From: Patescibacteria group bacterium
GTDB lineage: Bacteria > Patescibacteriota > Microgenomatia > UBA10105 > UBA927
Assembly (NCBI GenBank): GCA_038063875.1
Contig: JBBTUH010000002.1
Coordinates: forward strand, 12,530 to 76,529
DNA length: 64,000 nucleotides
Direction: 5' to 3'
The notes beneath the pieces were generated by a model that was given only the letters and a program-made list of their open reading frames with translations, searched no databases and had not been told where the DNA came from. Numbering within the stretch: the first letter of the stretch is position 1; every line of letters begins with the position of its first letter. Of this stretch, positions 7,092 through 13,382 are shown one piece after another. The translations under genes were made by a program, and so were the position numbers.

Positions 7092-8771
7092 TTATCGAGG
7101 TCCTATGCCGTAGTAGGTAAAAAACTCGCGTGCGATCGTAAAAAAGAGTGGCGCTGCAGTCTCTGATCCCCACTGGGATGATTGCGGCTCGCGAAGGGTG
7201 ACAAGCATGACGAATTTGGGGTCATCAACCGGTGCAAATCCGACAAACGAGGCTATTGTTTTGGTTTCATCATAGTGACCTGCGACGGGAATCTGCGCTG
7301 TGCCAGTTTTACCAGCAATTCTGTACCCTACGGGTTTGGCCCATTTGGCTTCACCCTTATCCACTGCCTCCACCATCATTTCGGCAGTAATTCTTGCAGC
7401 TTCAGGGCTTACAACCTGTCGTACCACCTTAGGCTTGACTGCTATGACTCGACCTGATCCCTCACGTATCTCTTTGACAACATGGGGTTGCATGAGTTTA
7501 CCACCATTTGCCAGAGCCGCGACTGCAGTGACCATTTGAATTGGCGTCACCGCAATCCCTTGACCAAACGATGCCGTGAGCTCATCTACCTCTGCCCATG
7601 CATTATCATCACGAAGCGTTGGCGACGATTCGTCTTCTAAATCTATATTCGTCGGCTTCCCAAAACCAAATCGCTTAATGGCTGATAAAAGTCGGTCATG
7701 ACCTAGTTTTTTGGCGACAAAGACCATGCCAACGTTTGAAGAGTACTCGAGAACCTGTGTCATAGATATAGTACCGTGATATTCGTTGTTCCATGTACGT
7801 ATAAAATACGGTCCACTTTCGACCGGTCCTGACTCATCCATCATAGTTTGGGGTGTAATAAGCTTATCGTGTATCGCCGCGGCCATCACCAGTGACTTAA
7901 ACGTACTCCCTGGTTCATAACTCCCTGCGACCACAGGATTTATATACAATTCTTTAGGAAACGCCGCAAAGTTTGATGGATCGTAGTTAGGGAAGCTTGC
8001 CATAGCCAAAACACCACCTGTTTTGGGATCCAATACGACGACTGACCCTTCTTTCGCACCATATTTCTCCATACCCTCCTTGAGTCTGCGCTCCACGATT
8101 TCTTGTACAGCTTTCTCACTCCATAAGACAAGTGTTCGCCCATTTTCTGGCTCGACTCGTTGTTGCTCTCCTATAAGGATTGGCGCACCCTTGGCATCTT
8201 TTTCTAACCGAAGTTTTCCAGATACTCCTCTTAACTGACGATCATAAAACCCCTCTAATCCAAAATATCCACGATCTGTACCATTAACGTCAGAACCCAC
8301 AAATCCCAACATATGTGCAGCTGTAGAGGCCTCAGGATACATGCGCAGTGGCTCTTTCTCAAACCCGAGAGAGGATACATTCAACTTTTTTAGCGCCTCT
8401 ACCATGTTGCCGTCTGCTCGATGAACAAGTGGCGCCCATACGCTCTTTGGGTCGGACACGCTTTGTAAAACAACGGATTCCTCTTGACCGATAATAGGGG
8501 CAACGAGTTTGGCAAACTCTGTAGGATCGGGAATAACTCTGGGCTCTGCAAAGACAAGGTACGCTGGTTTGTTCACCACGATCTGATTATCTTCACGATC
8601 GACAATCGTGCCGCGAGCTGCAGGGAGGGTAAACTCGATGAAATGTTGTGCTGATGCTTCAGTTTGTAACCTGTCACTTGCTATCACCTGCCAATAAAAT
8701 AATCGCAGAGTAACACCCAAAAATCCGACAAGAATAGCAGAATAAATTATAGAGGGCCGTGAGGTACTCAT
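7092..8771 (-). CDS. ftsI: penicillin-binding protein 2/3 family peptidoglycan D,D-transpeptidase
   Basis: N-terminal TM segment. SxxK (GSTFKSL), SSN (YSSNVG) and KTG (AGKTGTAQ) motifs in the correct order. Position after ftsL. Confidence 0.85.
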   Translation of the reverse strand: MSTSRPSIIYSAILVGFLGVTLRLFYWQVIASDRLQTEASAQHFIEFTLPAARGTIVDREDNQIVVNKPAYLVFAEPRVIPDPTEFAKLVAPIIGQEESVVLQSVSDPKSVWAPLVHRADGNMVEALKKLNVSSLGFEKEPLRMYPEASTAAHMLGFVGSDVNGTDRGYFGLEGFYDRQLRGVSGKLRLEKDAKGAPILIGEQQRVEPENGRTLVLWSEKAVQEIVERRLKEGMEKYGAKEGSVVVLDPKTGGVLAMASFPNYDPSNFAAFPKELYINPVVAGSYEPGSTFKSLVMAAAIHDKLITPQTMMDESGPVESGPYFIRTWNNEYHGTISMTQVLEYSSNVGMVFVAKKLGHDRLLSAIKRFGFGKPTNIDLEDESSPTLRDDNAWAEVDELTASFGQGIAVTPIQMVTAVAALANGGKLMQPHVVKEIREGSGRVIAVKPKVVRQVVSPEAARITAEMMVEAVDKGEAKWAKPVGYRIAGKTGTAQIPVAGHYDETKTIASFVGFAPVDDPKFVMLVTLREPQSSQWGSETAAPLFFTIAREFFTYYGIGPR

Positions 8772-8801
8772 CGAGTATATCGTACCATGTTTATATATCG
8801 A

Positions 8802-9104
8802 TTATGGCAGTGTGACGCCAAGGGCAACTGGAGCCTCAGACGAGAGTGCGACGATTTGATTTTTACGTGGTGGTTTAAATCCGAGCGCTTCTGCTTTGGT
8901 TCGCATGACAAGATATGACGAGGCCGATGCCACTTCTGTCACCAGCATATCGCGCATATCATTTTGGGTAGATAATTCATTGTCTAATTGACCGAGATTT
9001 TTCCCAAGGGTGGCTAGTTCGTTTGAGATCACAATTTGATAGATGACAAGGGTAACCGCAATAATCGGTAATATGATAAAAAAAAGTGATCCAATACGTT
9101 TCAT
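8802..9104 (-). CDS. ftsL: FtsL-like cell division protein (small single-pass coiled-coil membrane protein)
   Basis: 100 aa. N-terminal TM helix followed by a predicted coiled coil. Positioned between rsmH and ftsI, with a 4-bp overlap with rsmH. Confidence 0.5.
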   Translation of the reverse strand: MKRIGSLFFIILPIIAVTLVIYQIVISNELATLGKNLGQLDNELSTQNDMRDMLVTEVASASSYLVMRTKAEALGFKPPRKNQIVALSSEAPVALGVTLP

Positions 9105-9964
9105 ATTTTTTTAGCAATGCGTAGTTTGGCACTTCGTGATCGTTTATTCTCGTATACCTCTTTTTCGCCTGCGACAATTGGGTGCTTGGTAATCACTCTC
9201 CATCCATCTCCCCTCATGTACTGCTTTACTATCCTGTCTTCTAGCGAATGAAAGGTAATAATCGCGAGTATTCCGTCTGGCTTTAGTATGTCTTGAACTT
9301 GTCCTAATGCTGTTTTTAAGCTTCCTAACTCATCGTTTACTGCAATGCGTAATGCTTGAAATACTCGAGATAATATCGGTGTCGCGTGCTCTCTAGAGCC
9401 GGCCATCTTCTCTATTACCTCTGCTATGTCAGTCACCGTTTCGATTTTCTTTATCTGACGGGAGCGACAAAGAGCGCGAGCAATTGGTAAAGCCAACTGT
9501 TCTTCGCTAAATTTTGCAATGCACTCATACAACTGCTCCTCGGTCATACGATTCACCAATTGGGCAGCAGTGTCTCCATCGTCTTTCGACATTCGTAAGT
9601 CGAGTGGAGCATCGGTGAATCGATAACTAAATCCTCGATTAGGTGTATCGAGCTGATGGCTAGATACGCCTAAATCAAACAATATTCCATCAATGTGCAA
9701 AAATTGGTTATCCGCAGCTATTTTTCCGATATCTCTGAAATTTCCCTGTACCAATGTGTAACCTTCATACTCTTGCAGTCTCTGTTTGGCTTCGTCAATC
9801 GCATCTGTATCTGTATCAATACCTAGTACTATGCCTTCACGTTTGAGAATCTCTTCTGTGTGTCCAGCACCCCCCAGTGTCGCATCGATATACTTCTTTC
9901 CCGTTTCTATCTCTAGCGCCTCAATCACTTCTGTCTTTAGTACTGGTGTGTGGTAATCGCTCAT
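9101..9964 (-). CDS. rsmH: 16S rRNA (cytosine1402-N4)-methyltransferase
   Basis: HTPVLKTEVIEAL...IDATLGGAGHTEEIL N-terminus is diagnostic of MraW/RsmH. Downstream of mraZ. Confidence 0.9.
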   Translation of the reverse strand: MSDYHTPVLKTEVIEALEIETGKKYIDATLGGAGHTEEILKREGIVLGIDTDTDAIDEAKQRLQEYEGYTLVQGNFRDIGKIAADNQFLHIDGILFDLGVSSHQLDTPNRGFSYRFTDAPLDLRMSKDDGDTAAQLVNRMTEEQLYECIAKFSEEQLALPIARALCRSRQIKKIETVTDIAEVIEKMAGSREHATPILSRVFQALRIAVNDELGSLKTALGQVQDILKPDGILAIITFHSLEDRIVKQYMRGDGWRVITKHPIVAGEKEVYENKRSRSAKLRIAKKI

Positions 9965-10362
9965 GTTTGGCTTAACCTTTTCTCATACTCAATCCATAAT
10001 TTCGTGTCCCAGATTTCGAAATGATCTCCAGCGCCGACGACCTTTATATCACGAGTTATGGTGGCGTAGCTTTTGAGAGCTTGTGGTAGGACGATACGAC
10101 CTAACTTATCCATCTCTACCTTCTCTGCTCCCGAAAACAAATACCTCCGCACTTCTCGTGCTTTTTGGTCTGTGACAGGTGTTTCAAGGTGCTTTTGTGC
10201 CTCTGTTTCCCAAGCTTTTGTATCAAACCCAAATATACATCCGTCGTACCCTCTGGCTAATACTATTGCCCTCGCCTCGATCTCTTGCCGTATCTTACGT
10301 GGGAGCATTAACCTACTACGCTCATCTAATGCATGATCATATTCCCCTAGGAAAAGTTTCAT
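9961..10362 (-). CDS. mraZ: transcriptional regulator MraZ
   Basis: 133 aa. N-terminal FLGEY..LDERSRLMLP (DxxxR) motif repeated in the second half (GRIVLPQ). First gene of the dcw operon. Confidence 0.85.
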   Translation of the reverse strand: MKLFLGEYDHALDERSRLMLPRKIRQEIEARAIVLARGYDGCIFGFDTKAWETEAQKHLETPVTDQKAREVRRYLFSGAEKVEMDKLGRIVLPQALKSYATITRDIKVVGAGDHFEIWDTKLWIEYEKRLSQT

Positions 10363-10723
10363 GCTTTTAATTTACCATATCTTCCCACTACATACCATCT
10401 TTTCCCATTTTTCACGTTTTGTCAAGCCCTCATTTCACGAAAAGCCCAAGCTACGATTCAGAAACTTGCCGAAGCACAAGAGGAATTAGGGAGTCATGAT
10501 ACCGAAAATGTAGCACGAGTTTACGGTGCACAAGGAGTTATTGGGATCATTACACGTAGTCGAGGTGGAAGAAGGGGTATGGAACAAACTCTGGCACAAA
10601 ATAGGAAGTTATTAGAAACCGAGCCTTACGCAACGATAGTCAAGAAACAACGTGAAGTAATACAATTGAGAAACATGCTTCCTAAAGAGGTCACCCGCGC
10701 CCTCAAGTGGGAGTAGTTTACAA

Positions 10724-10763
10724 AGTAGTCAACTTTGGAGCGATCGCAGAAAAGTTGACTACT
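10724..10763 (+). terminator. perfect 13-bp-stem hairpin (agtagtcaacttt / aaagttgactact, 14-nt loop) followed by ttcctatcc; putative intrinsic terminator or regulatory hairpin
   Basis: Read directly from the sequence. Lies 8 bp after a TAG that closes a 45-codon plus-strand ORF (MEQTLAQNRK...). The loop contains GCGATCGC. Confidence 0.4.
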
Positions 10764-10822
10764 TTCCTATCCACTACCTTGACAGGAGGAGTTGTGAGAG
10801 AGAGAATAAGCATCATTGAATT

Positions 10823-11203
10823 ATGACTGCAGTACCGCCTAGTGTAATCATGCGAGAAAGAATGCTTGAAGCGCGTGAAGCTACATATCCTCAAATGCGC
10901 AAGCATTTAATGGCTATAGCCAAAGCTGAACGGTGTATGCATCGATTTTCGTTTGATGCTGTCGCCGGTATAAAGGAGTTAAGAACAAAAATTGCTTCTT
11001 TGAGGCAATCACTTGAAGATCCGAGCTACCCATACCCTCATGTCGCTGATTTTGAGCTCGAACAAAAAAAACTTAGATTATATGTTGCGCGTCAATATGA
11101 CCCATCAACCGTTATAATAGACAATGCGCTACGTGCCCGCGAACGAGTGGAGCGGAAAATGCCAGAGTCAGCGCGTCGGGCGCTAAACTGGATAAAATCT
11201 TAA
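10823..11203 (+). CDS. hypothetical protein (126 aa, charged, predicted helical, no TM)
   Basis: Longest ORF in the region. On the opposite strand to all neighbours. No recognisable family. Confidence 0.4.
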   Translation: MTAVPPSVIMRERMLEAREATYPQMRKHLMAIAKAERCMHRFSFDAVAGIKELRTKIASLRQSLEDPSYPYPHVADFELEQKKLRLYVARQYDPSTVIIDNALRARERVERKMPESARRALNWIKS

Positions 11204-11207
11204 GCAT

Positions 11208-11543
11208 ATGGCAGCACGAAAACTTCCTGAACAGGTTCTTGTATGGGAAAAACAACTTAATGAAACCGGGTTGGGACACCTTGATGTTCGACGCGCTTTG
11301 CGGCAAGTTTCTGCCACTGAAAAACGTTTAAAGAAATTTTCACCCAATGACGTACAGACCTTCGTTGATTTAACAGCTCAAATGATTCAGTCACGCGGCT
11401 CAGGATTTGAACAGAGAACAAGACGGTTAACGGAAAAGCTGTCACAGAATAAGTATTCATCTATTCGTATGGCTTTTCATGATGTGAATAGAGCTAAGCA
11501 ATCACTTCCGGATCAGGTTCGAACAATCCTCGGATGGGCGTGA
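11208..11543 (+). CDS. hypothetical protein (111 aa, basic, predicted helical)
   Basis: Starts 5 bp after the preceding ORF, suggesting an operon pair. No recognisable family. Confidence 0.4.
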   Translation: MAARKLPEQVLVWEKQLNETGLGHLDVRRALRQVSATEKRLKKFSPNDVQTFVDLTAQMIQSRGSGFEQRTRRLTEKLSQNKYSSIRMAFHDVNRAKQSLPDQVRTILGWA

Positions 11544-11544
11544 C

Positions 11545-12012
11545 TTACTCTAGCTCAAAATCCTTGGAGAACTGGCTCCTTTTGTTGGAGGTATCGGTAA
11601 ATTCGAGTGCTACAGACACTGCAGTCACGCCCGCATCTGGTTTACAGACGTTTCGTGAGCACGTCCCGAGGTAGACTTCGCGTTCAAATTTGTCTTGTCC
11701 AGCAACGTCTACCGGCTTACTACCGGAATTGACACCCTTGATGAGCCCTTGGCTATCATAGGTCAACTCATACCCCACCGTGGCGTATTTAGATGCCAAC
11801 GCACTCACAGAAAGCACGACTGCATTTGCCTTGGATTTACTTTCGGTGACGGTAACGACAAGAGATGCATCCGCCTCTGGAAGCAATTCCTGCACTTCTT
11901 CTACCACTGGCACTGGTTCACTGGATGGTGCTACCATTTTGTACACCACGACACCGGTAATAAGAAGCAGTACTGCAAGACCGATGTACATAAACGTCAT
12001 TTTATTTTTCAT
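11545..12012 (-). CDS. hypothetical membrane-anchored or secreted protein
   Basis: 155 aa. N-terminal signal or TM helix (FMYIGLAVLLLITGVVVY) then a Ser/Thr/Val-rich domain. 4-bp overlap with glyQS. Confidence 0.45.
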   Translation of the reverse strand: MKNKMTFMYIGLAVLLLITGVVVYKMVAPSSEPVPVVEEVQELLPEADASLVVTVTESKSKANAVVLSVSALASKYATVGYELTYDSQGLIKGVNSGSKPVDVAGQDKFEREVYLGTCSRNVCKPDAGVTAVSVALEFTDTSNKRSQFSKDFELE

Positions 12013-13382
12013 AATTTGTTTTGAAAATACGCTGACAGATCACTGACAGCAATTCTTTCCTGCGTCATGGTATCTCTGTCACGCACTGTGACTGTACCAT
12101 CTTCTAGCGTAGCATAATCAATCGTTACACACCACGGCGTCCCCGCCTCATCTTGGGAGAGATAGCGCTTGCCTATATTTCCTCTATCATCCCACGCTAT
12201 GGTAAGCGATGACTTGAGGCTATCAAACACACTTTTAGCCTTCTCAACGAGCTCTGGTTTGTTGGCCACCAATGGAAATACTGCGACTTTATATGGCGCT
12301 AACGCGGGCTTGAGGTGAAGCACGGTACGCTTCTCATTTTTCTCATATGCATCAGAGAGCACCATCAGAAACATACGATTAATTCCTACTGCCGGCTCTA
12401 TCACATGCGGCATTACTTTGGTACCTGTCTTAGGATCTATGTAGGAGAGATCCACACCTGAGTGCTTAGACTGCACCGTAAGGTCGTAGTCCGTACGATA
12501 CGCGACACCCCACAATTCTTTCCATCCAAATGGGTACTGGTACTCGAGATCGTAGGTATCTTTGCTGTAGTGACTGCGTTCTTTGTCTGTATGCTGTCTC
12601 CAACGCAGATTATCGGATTTGACTCCCAAGGCTTTCACCACGAAGTCGTGCATATCCGTCCTCCATGCCTCAAAAAGCGTTTTCCAATCTGAAACATTCG
12701 GATCGAAGAAATATTCTATCTCTCCTTGTTCAAACTCAAGCGTGCGAAACACAAATTGTCCTGTGGTGATTTCATTGCGAAATGATTTTCCAATTTGCCC
12801 TACACCAAATGGCAGTGATACACGAGTGGAATCAAGAATATTTTTAAAATTGGTAAATATCCCTTGAGCGGTCTCTCCGCGCATGTAGAGAAGGGACTTT
12901 TCACCCTCTATCACTCCGAGTTTGGTTTCAAACAACAAATTAAATTTCTTCGGGCTCAAAAGCGGATTCTTGTCAGGACTTAAAATCATATGCTCTCCAA
13001 TAAACGCATCCATATCATCAAGCGTCATATCCTCAACTACCACTTGGACGTCTGTATGATCTTTAAGCCATGCTTCTATAAGATGATCAGCGCGATATCG
13101 CTTTTTGGTAACACTATCCTCGACTAGCGGGTCATTAAATGCTGCGACGTGTCCTGAAGCCACCCACGTTTGAGGATGCAAAAGAATTTGCGTATCCACA
13201 CCCACCATATCCGTGCGATTGTTCACAAACGTCTTCCACCACAGCGATTTGATATTGCGAAGTAATTCGACTCCTAATGGTCCGTAATCATACGAACTCA
13301 TCAGTCCCCCATAGATATCACTCGTGGGATACACAAACCCTCGGCGTTTACACAGACTATTTATTTCATCCAATGTTGGCAT
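12009..13382 (-). CDS. glyQS: glycine--tRNA ligase (dimeric GlyQS type)
   Basis: 457 aa. N-terminal RRGFVYPTSDIYGGLMSSYDYGPLG motif is characteristic of alpha2-type GlyRS. Class II core plus C-terminal anticodon-binding domain. Confidence 0.9.
   Translation of the reverse strand: MPTLDEINSLCKRRGFVYPTSDIYGGLMSSYDYGPLGVELLRNIKSLWWKTFVNNRTDMVGVDTQILLHPQTWVASGHVAAFNDPLVEDSVTKKRYRADHLIEAWLKDHTDVQVVVEDMTLDDMDAFIGEHMILSPDKNPLLSPKKFNLLFETKLGVIEGEKSLLYMRGETAQGIFTNFKNILDSTRVSLPFGVGQIGKSFRNEITTGQFVFRTLEFEQGEIEYFFDPNVSDWKTLFEAWRTDMHDFVVKALGVKSDNLRWRQHTDKERSHYSKDTYDLEYQYPFGWKELWGVAYRTDYDLTVQSKHSGVDLSYIDPKTGTKVMPHVIEPAVGINRMFLMVLSDAYEKNEKRTVLHLKPALAPYKVAVFPLVANKPELVEKAKSVFDSLKSSLTIAWDDRGNIGKRYLSQDEAGTPWCVTIDYATLEDGTVTVRDRDTMTQERIAVSDLSAYFQNKL

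Follow-up and report, generated by a model that had tools for sequence, protein, structure and literature searches.

Genomes of the Patescibacteria (candidate phyla radiation, CPR) are small, mostly uncultured and rich in orphan genes, and to our knowledge almost nothing is known about how their transcription is regulated. Here we describe an island of three small plus-strand open reading frames (ORF1, ORF2 and ORF3), with a perfect palindrome and a promoter between the first and the second, that lies between mraZ and a gene for glycyl-tRNA synthetase (GlyRS) in a 64-kb stretch of contig JBBTUH010000002.1 from this phylum (the window; all coordinates count from its first nucleotide). Several described systems resemble parts of this locus. 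The REP (repetitive extragenic palindromic) and BIME (bacterial interspersed mosaic element) palindromes and the paired uptake-sequence terminators are repeated extragenic elements, and simple-sequence repeats form contingency promoters, of which the (TA)n spacer of Haemophilus influenzae hifA/hifB is an example. The WXG100 proteins EsxA and EsxB are tandem, paralogous, co-transcribed helical proteins of ~100 aa. The regulator PaaX of Escherichia coli, a GntR-type winged-helix protein with a Cas2-like middle domain that acts at the Pa, Pz and Px operators, recognises widely separated half-sites, TGATTC(N27)GAATCA, and represses transcription from its own promoter by obstructing RNA polymerase (PMC9493321).

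We read the island as a lineage-restricted accessory operon of small proteins that was controlled by a PaaX-like regulator and has now decayed in uncultured groundwater Patescibacteria, a reading to which we give a probability of about one half. As in E. coli, the candidate operator is a widely spaced inverted repeat that overlaps the predicted promoter of the regulator itself, like the site at Px (PMC9493321), and relatives of the locus encode a protein with the PaaX_M domain beside the operon. Unlike the E. coli site, the half-sites are TAGTCAA and TTGACTA, set 20–22 bp apart, and enclose an additional conserved CGRTCG centre; the regulator has a hydrophobic N-terminal extension, and no phenylacetate catabolic genes accompany it. 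The two systems differ further in that the window locus lacks a gene for the regulator and the palindrome is a predicted site.

A restricted family of small basic proteins

Three successive plus-strand frames do lie between mraZ and the genes for a 155-aa protein and GlyRS, as the original prediction stated, and all three turn out to be paralogs of one family, a relationship that it had overlooked. ORF2 and ORF3, separated by 4 nt rather than the 5 bp first given, are paralogous over their full length (hhalign probability 87.7%, E 3.4e-6) and share the motifs (L/V)PxxV...RE near the N-terminus and (L/M)PxxxRxxLxW near the C-terminus. A 2.6-kb Logan contig (L001) carries orthologs of both, in the same order and with the same right-hand neighbours as in the window: P0004 corresponds to ORF2 (65% identity) and P0002 to ORF3 (56%). 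At the nucleotide level the two pairs are 74% and 66% identical, with 48–62% of synonymous sites differing, and the ratio of nonsynonymous to synonymous substitution rates (dN/dS) is 0.30 for ORF2 and 0.27 for ORF3, compared with 0.10 for the 155-aa gene next to them. ORF2 and ORF3 are genuine genes under purifying selection.

Structure prediction, which had been proposed as a check, gave confident six-helix models. From six sequences only, AlphaFold2 returned a predicted local distance difference test score (pLDDT) of 90.1 and a predicted template modelling score of 0.75 for ORF2, and a pLDDT of 83.9 for ORF3. Together with the dN/dS values of 0.27–0.30, these scores dispose of the concern that ORF2 and ORF3 are antisense noise in the 5′ region of the dcw (division and cell wall) cluster; the related worry, that no relative would conserve these frames, falls with the orthologs in L001. 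The family members are hydrophilic and basic, with isoelectric points of 9.7–10.7 (9.9 and 10.7 for ORF2 and ORF3). The earlier description of helical, basic products without a known family stands.

ORF2 and ORF3 form a predicted bicistronic operon behind one sigma-70-like promoter that is conserved in L001 and in a third related locus, L010; the ORF2 start codon lies 16 nt past the −10 box and has no Shine-Dalgarno sequence. Taking paralogy, co-transcription and charge as the sole grounds, our best guess is that the two products most likely act jointly, forming a hetero-oligomer with affinity for nucleic acid or some other polyanion. A heterodimer would be plausible by analogy with WXG100 proteins, which share the tandem arrangement and size. 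Unlike those proteins, however, the family has no Pfam match, its conserved tryptophan stands at the extreme C-terminus and not in a central WXG turn, its models contain six short helices as opposed to a two-helix hairpin, and no type VII secretion genes lie nearby. Each family member begins and ends with the same LPxxV helix-start motif, which hints at the origin of tandem copies, and ORF3 contains a 17-nt in-frame direct repeat (88% identical) at 11222–11238 (KLPEQV, near the N-terminus) and 11504–11520 (SLPDQV, near the C-terminus).

As far as the searched sequences go, the family is confined to three Patescibacteria lineages. An exhaustive HMMER search of 1.84 billion cluster representatives recovered the window copies, P0002, P0004, a further member of 107 aa from L010 (P0005) and one spurious tetratricopeptide repeat (TPR) protein; the latter, P0007 (1268 aa, E 4e-5), was discarded as an NB-ARC/TPR repeat protein. 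A word-indexed profile search added no members, and a scan of GTDB species representatives with the ORF2 alignment found no relatives. Scans of the three ORF peptides and the 155-aa neighbour against Pfam, NCBIfam, PHROG and PADLOC assigned no family above the cut-offs, the sub-threshold noise including LETM2_N (0.045) and Phage_portal_2 (0.0056), both far below them. The ORF2 and ORF3 models had no specific structural or sequence relative, and a fold search of BFVD gave E values of at least 0.6. Further small ORFs proved unrelated: the first ORF of L001 (67–92 aa), tested as a diverged copy, a pair of small ORFs at loci L024 and L028, and a 117-aa ORF at L023.

The palindrome and its PaaX-like neighbours

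The perfect hairpin reported after ORF1 is present, with 15-nt arms, and begins 5 nt past the ORF1 stop codon. A role as a private terminator of ORF1 is not supported, since the same palindrome occurs at many other loci, often beside promoters. Within the 64 kb of the window it is a single copy (0 expected by chance), and the stretch from the hairpin to the ORF2 start codon, at 79% identity to L001, is better conserved than the coding DNA. Positions 10766–10778 (TCCTATCCACTAC), which separate the palindrome from the −35 box, are conserved in L001 and contain a DnaA-box-like TATCCAC.

Five copies are found across the three related loci, two each in L001 and L010, with the consensus TAGTCAA-N20-22-TTGACTA around a CGRTCG centre. 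A search with TAGTCAAYTT-N2-9-CGRTCG-N2-9-ANTTGACTA, for which we estimated by hand ~0.5 chance matches in a 596-Gb genome collection, matched 9 loci in GTDB species genomes, 12 metagenome contigs and 0 viral contigs. After deduplication these left ~14 additional distinct loci, on contigs of Patescibacteria or from groundwater, among them a Saccharibacteria metagenome-assembled genome and contigs with proteins that NCBI assigns to Patescibacteria. Across the 16 distinct copies that align, the TAGTCAA/TTGACTA arms and the CGRTCG centre are invariant. L001, L010 and L026 hold two copies each, as does one Saccharibacteria contig. In the first three the pairs bracket single genes, a histidine phosphatase gene in L026 (1065–1102 and 1732–1765) and a PaaX-like gene in L010 (365–411 and 1222–1260) and L001 (~300–347 and 1149–1193). 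In the last two loci one copy overlaps the final codons of the PaaX-like gene, the end of which therefore encodes KVVNLLSTGVKLTT before the stop.

Three cyanobacterial matches, in Chamaesiphon (L011, L017 and L019), have GTCGATCGCG, a HIP1-like centre, and different flanks; they probably represent one unrelated orthologous locus and were set aside. One copy adjoins dinB, and a LexA box was considered and dropped: the LexA motif of Patescibacteria is described as a direct repeat (PMC7739468, citing Sanchez-Osuna 2017). Literature searches returned no relevant description of a Patescibacteria palindrome or of a CPR PaaX.

Evidence for an operator comes from the PaaX-like genes. The 276-aa proteins encoded between the palindromes of L001 and L010 match the central Cas2-like PaaX_M domain (PF20803; 5.9e-17 and 1.6e-15) and, weakly, PaaX_C; their winged helix-turn-helix is assumed from the family, not detected. 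In both loci the palindrome arm closest to the start of the gene is the −35 box, TTGACT, of the predicted promoter of the PaaX-like gene, followed after a 17-nt spacer by a −10 box (TATGTT in L001, TAAAGT in L010) that ends 6 nt before the start codon. An independent case comes from Saccharibacteria locus L012, where a palindrome arm is the −35 box of TTGACT-18-TATAAT (11/12 matches) upstream of a 179-aa PaaX_M protein (4.8e-23). Because the canonical terminator of clpB already ends 15 nt upstream of the palindrome at this locus, the palindrome is not needed for termination there. The palindrome is probably the operator of a PaaX-like regulator that has been lost from the window locus. A regulator bound to it would shut RNA polymerase out of the regulator's own promoter, and would be centred ~71 nt upstream of the predicted transcription start of ORF2 and ORF3 and could thereby control them. 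In the window 13 nt separate the end of the palindrome from the downstream −35 box of ORF2. Measured from the palindrome centre to the first nucleotide of the −35 hexamer, the distance is 35.5 nt in the window and in L001, and also at L023, an unrelated locus. With the regulator gone, the operon in the window may have been freed from control, or may be controlled in trans from elsewhere in the genome.

Comparison of the three lineages suggests how the regulator was lost. L001 reads, from the left, mraZ upstream region, promoter, an unrelated 67-aa ORF, palindrome, PaaX-like gene (minus strand), palindrome, promoter, the two orthologs, 155-aa gene and GlyRS. L010 reads GA-tract promoter, one family member, palindrome, PaaX-like gene (minus strand), palindrome, 148-aa gene and GlyRS, and the window reads mraZ, truncated ORF1, one palindrome, promoter, ORF2, ORF3, 155-aa gene and GlyRS. 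The gene for the membrane-anchored protein of 148–155 aa and GlyRS are thus the right-hand neighbours in all three lineages. A search for the same trio of genes in relatives had been proposed; orthologs of ORF2 and ORF3 are indeed found in L001, but the first ORF there is unrelated, and L010 has one member. Taking the PaaX-like gene and one palindrome out of the L001 layout yields that of the window, which is what recombination between palindromes would produce. We infer that such an event deleted the regulator gene in the window lineage, and would have left the ORF1 stop, a single palindrome, the promoter and ORF2–ORF3 in succession.

ORF1 is probably a pseudogene, by comparison with its relatives. 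Its frame matches positions 22–113 of the family profile (E 7e-33), its C-terminal third being nearest to P0005 (45% over 33 aa). Homology to L001 stops exactly at CATTTCACG (10439), beyond which L001 continues into a TTGACA...GAGAGAGAAT promoter and the window directly into the ORF1 body; ORF1 has therefore lost its promoter and ~21 N-terminal positions. Upstream of ORF1 the plus strand has no promoter-like site, the sole nearby match on that strand (10637) being internal, and no ATG, GTG or TTG occurs in frame before 10579. The frame said to be open for about 125 codons upstream of the ATG extends for 76 (121 in all), and its first ~84 nt are the conserved mraZ upstream region, outside ORF1 proper. 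An inactivated gene had been suspected here; the truncated family copy largely bears this out, though more was lost than a start codon. With 92 family codons still uninterrupted by a stop, either ORF1 was truncated recently or its 45-aa remnant remains in use.

Competing readings of the palindrome and promoter

The alternative that survives best, possible but somewhat unlikely in our estimation, is that the palindrome is no protein operator but a bidirectional terminator or insulator, or an element resembling REP sequences or miniature inverted-repeat transposable elements that spreads or recombines in compact genomes. It would then merely end transcription from the ORF1 side, and ORF2 and ORF3 would be a constitutive orphan operon without a dedicated regulator. 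Several observations weigh against PaaX-like control. No PaaX-like gene lies in the 64-kb window of a ~1-Mb genome, so that the cognate regulator may be absent, yet the window keeps a perfect palindrome. Most of the ~14 other sites are not beside a PaaX-like gene, and their neighbours are diverse (PAP2, His_Phos, DeoR and LuxR helix-turn-helix proteins, orphans). About half of the sites lie 0–22 nt past a stop codon (in the window, L018, L020, L026 and both copies of L010, HP1 and HP2), and the ends of convergent genes flank three or four (HP1 of L001, HP1 of L010, L029); these positions suit a terminator or REP-like element better than an operator. Two stem positions covary through compensatory changes (CG in 8 and UA in 4 sequences; CG in 6 and GC in 4), a pattern equally compatible with base pairing and with a symmetric protein site.

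Other features also favour a structural element. The predicted RNA fold is stable (z = −2.9, centroid −23 kcal/mol), and the outer stems differ in Saccharibacteria (CGACC/GGTCG). Like REP/BIME elements and uptake-sequence terminators, the palindrome is a conserved intergenic unit of ~45 nt, often just past stop codons, with GTAG...CTAC inside, and it sometimes brackets single genes, such as the PaaX-like genes of L001 and L010 and the histidine phosphatase gene of L026, where it would be a plausible substrate for deletion. Unlike them, it has one copy in the 64-kb window, low for a REP family, an AT-rich stem, a conserved loop and a fixed spacing to promoters; no RAYT-like (REP-associated tyrosine) transposase was seen. 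The invariance of the TAGTCAA/TTGACTA core and the CGRTCG centre, at a divergence where synonymous sites are near saturation, is not needed by a plain terminator. Nor does the element look like one: with 5 of 15 stem pairs G-C and only three U after the stem (tail TTTCCTATCC), it lacks the G+C-rich stem-loop and U run of an intrinsic terminator and was not called by a terminator scan. An Rfam scan of 10300–11700 (E up to 10) gave only two sub-threshold matches to small RNAs, both on the hairpin. L012 has its own terminator, and the second copy of L001 (HP2) and that of L023 lie between divergent gene starts, where there is nothing to terminate. The suggestion of a 'regulatory cassette' in the original prediction is loosely right only, in that palindrome and promoter are conserved and relatives have a PaaX-like regulator.

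The promoter of ORF2 and ORF3 has a second unusual feature. A (GA)5 tract at 10796–10805, the longest dinucleotide run in the window, spans its spacer and −10 box, and among the loci retrieved GA runs of five or more repeats were confined to promoters of this kind. L001 has 5 and 7 repeats (69–78 and 1222–1235), L010 at least 14 (1–28; the contig breaks inside the tract), L023 and L028 have 8 and 7 (2097–2112 and 3377–3390 in L028) and L024 has 3, and the differing tracts give spacers of 15, 17, 19 and 23 nt. The palindrome, a GA-tract promoter (TTGCAA...TATTAT or TACTAT) or both also precede a different family of small orphan proteins directly upstream of fusA (L024 1619–2246; L028 3377–3657); in L024 these are a tandem paralogous pair of 76 and 73 aa, unrelated to ORF2 and ORF3 by hhalign. 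In an extension of the PaaX-like reading that we consider unlikely, palindrome and GA-tract promoter would form a Patescibacteria-wide cassette, in which PaaX-like proteins, with a presumed winged-helix and a Cas2-like domain, bind TAGTCAA-N20-22-TTGACTA and govern a regulon where fast-evolving small orphan proteins abound, and GA slippage adds phase variation. Its members would include the ORF2/ORF3 family and the L024/L028 tandem pair upstream of fusA.

Very unlikely, in our view, is that the locus is in the first place a phase-variable contingency locus, in which GA slippage would shift the spacer by 2 bp per change and switch the operon on or off. The repeat tract does lie within the spacer between the −35 and −10 hexamers, as at hifA/hifB, and its length and the spacer (15–23 nt) vary among related loci. 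However, the −35 and −10 boxes are predicted sites only, five repeats are short for efficient slippage, and nine contigs of this population, drawn from separate Hainich samples, show one and the same tract; length differences between species are not phase variation. Unlike hifA/hifB, the locus also belongs to another phylum and encodes cytoplasmic-looking orphans, not surface structures. A horizontally acquired toxin-antitoxin pair, defence module or prophage remnant would be in keeping with small adjacent genes of no known family, on the strand opposite their neighbours, and with a locus layout that varies among relatives. It is scarcely credible, as ORF2 and ORF3 encode paralogs alike in size and charge, where a type II toxin-antitoxin module would pair non-homologous partners, no toxin, antitoxin or defence model (Pfam, NCBIfam, PADLOC; E up to 1) matches them beyond sub-threshold noise, nor does any significant PHROG entry, no viral contig carries the family or the palindrome, GC and GC3 (G+C content at third codon positions) resemble the flanks, and the position beside the 155-aa gene and GlyRS is constant in three lineages.

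Flanking sequence, source population and significance

The features of the island and its neighbours are collected in Table 1. The window is not as uniformly minus-strand outside the island as was thought, a further group of plus-strand genes lying at ~34.8–38.1 kb. The raised G+C content claimed for the island is not seen (0.435–0.446, against 0.43–0.48 in the flanking genes), and with GC and GC3 resembling the flanks a recent acquisition finds no support.

Table 1. Coordinates of the island and adjoining features in the window.
Feature	Position	Strand	Description
mraZ	9961-10362	minus	Pfam MraZ 7.9e-30; heads rsmH-ftsL-ftsI cluster
Conserved non-coding mraZ upstream region	10396-10439	minus	84% (37/44) identity to L001 1-44
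ORF1	10434-10716	plus	5′-truncated third paralog, no promoter, probable pseudogene
ORF1, ATG version	10579-10716	plus	45 codons; sole canonical start
Perfect inverted repeat	10722-10765		Arms AAAGTAGTCAACTTT (10722-10736) and AAAGTTGACTACTTT (10751-10765), 14-nt spacer, GCGATCGC centre; candidate operator or hairpin
Sigma-70-like promoter TTGACA-17-GAGAAT (predicted)	10779-10807	plus	Best promoter-like site in region, 10/12 matches
ORF2	10823-11203	plus	126 aa, basic, six helices; first gene of predicted operon
ORF3	11208-11543	plus	111 aa, basic, six helices; second gene of predicted operon
155-aa gene	11545-12012	minus	Membrane-anchored product
GlyRS	12009-13382	minus	Class II

The conserved region upstream of mraZ holds two direct repeats, CCCATTT(TT)CACG, 23 nt apart and flanking a minus-strand TTGACA (10425–10420). 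The repeats (10401–10439 in minus-strand sense) are conserved at 8–44 of L001 and could be the MraZ boxes of the dcw promoter. At the other edge, the ORF3 stop and that of the convergent 155-aa gene are 1 nt apart (11541–11547), leaving no space for a terminator, and this tail-to-tail arrangement is retained in L001 (1980–1986).

In the NCBI annotation ORF2 is MEK7577066.1 (locus tag AAB492_00425) and ORF3 is AAB492_00430, both annotated as hypothetical. The island DNA recurs on many contigs from Hainich groundwater, among them one of 996 kb (L004). Four contigs of sister strains (L002, L003, L004 and L006), compared over 7200–10391, diverge from the window by 2–10% to the left of 10340, with ~190 single-nucleotide differences across the dcw genes (36 in mraZ alone), predominantly at third codon positions; from 10340 to at least ~15540 they are identical to it. 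The abrupt change therefore marks a recombination breakpoint at the start of mraZ, the left edge of the island. Compared with the short-read contigs, L004 carries single-base indels, for example in an A-run inside ORF2 (window position 11064), because of which we regard P0003 (97 aa), which represents ORF2 in the database, and several adjacent gene calls on L004 as frameshift artefacts.

In conclusion, the general weight of these findings for biology is modest. The orphan family is real: its members are under selection and confidently folded, yet are found in three lineages among ~15 billion proteins. The locus records its own turnover, in the truncation of a gene, the apparent loss of a regulator between palindromes and a strain-level recombination breakpoint at the edge of the island. 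In three cases the palindrome coincides with the predicted −35 box of a PaaX-like gene, and this promoter-linked element offers a testable candidate regulator-operator pair for the phylum; should the operator reading fail, the palindrome would remain an undescribed repeated element of Patescibacteria genomes. If the palindrome and GA-tract promoter did form a cassette across the phylum, it would be the first defined transcription-factor regulon, and the first contingency mechanism, for these episymbiotic bacteria of reduced genome.

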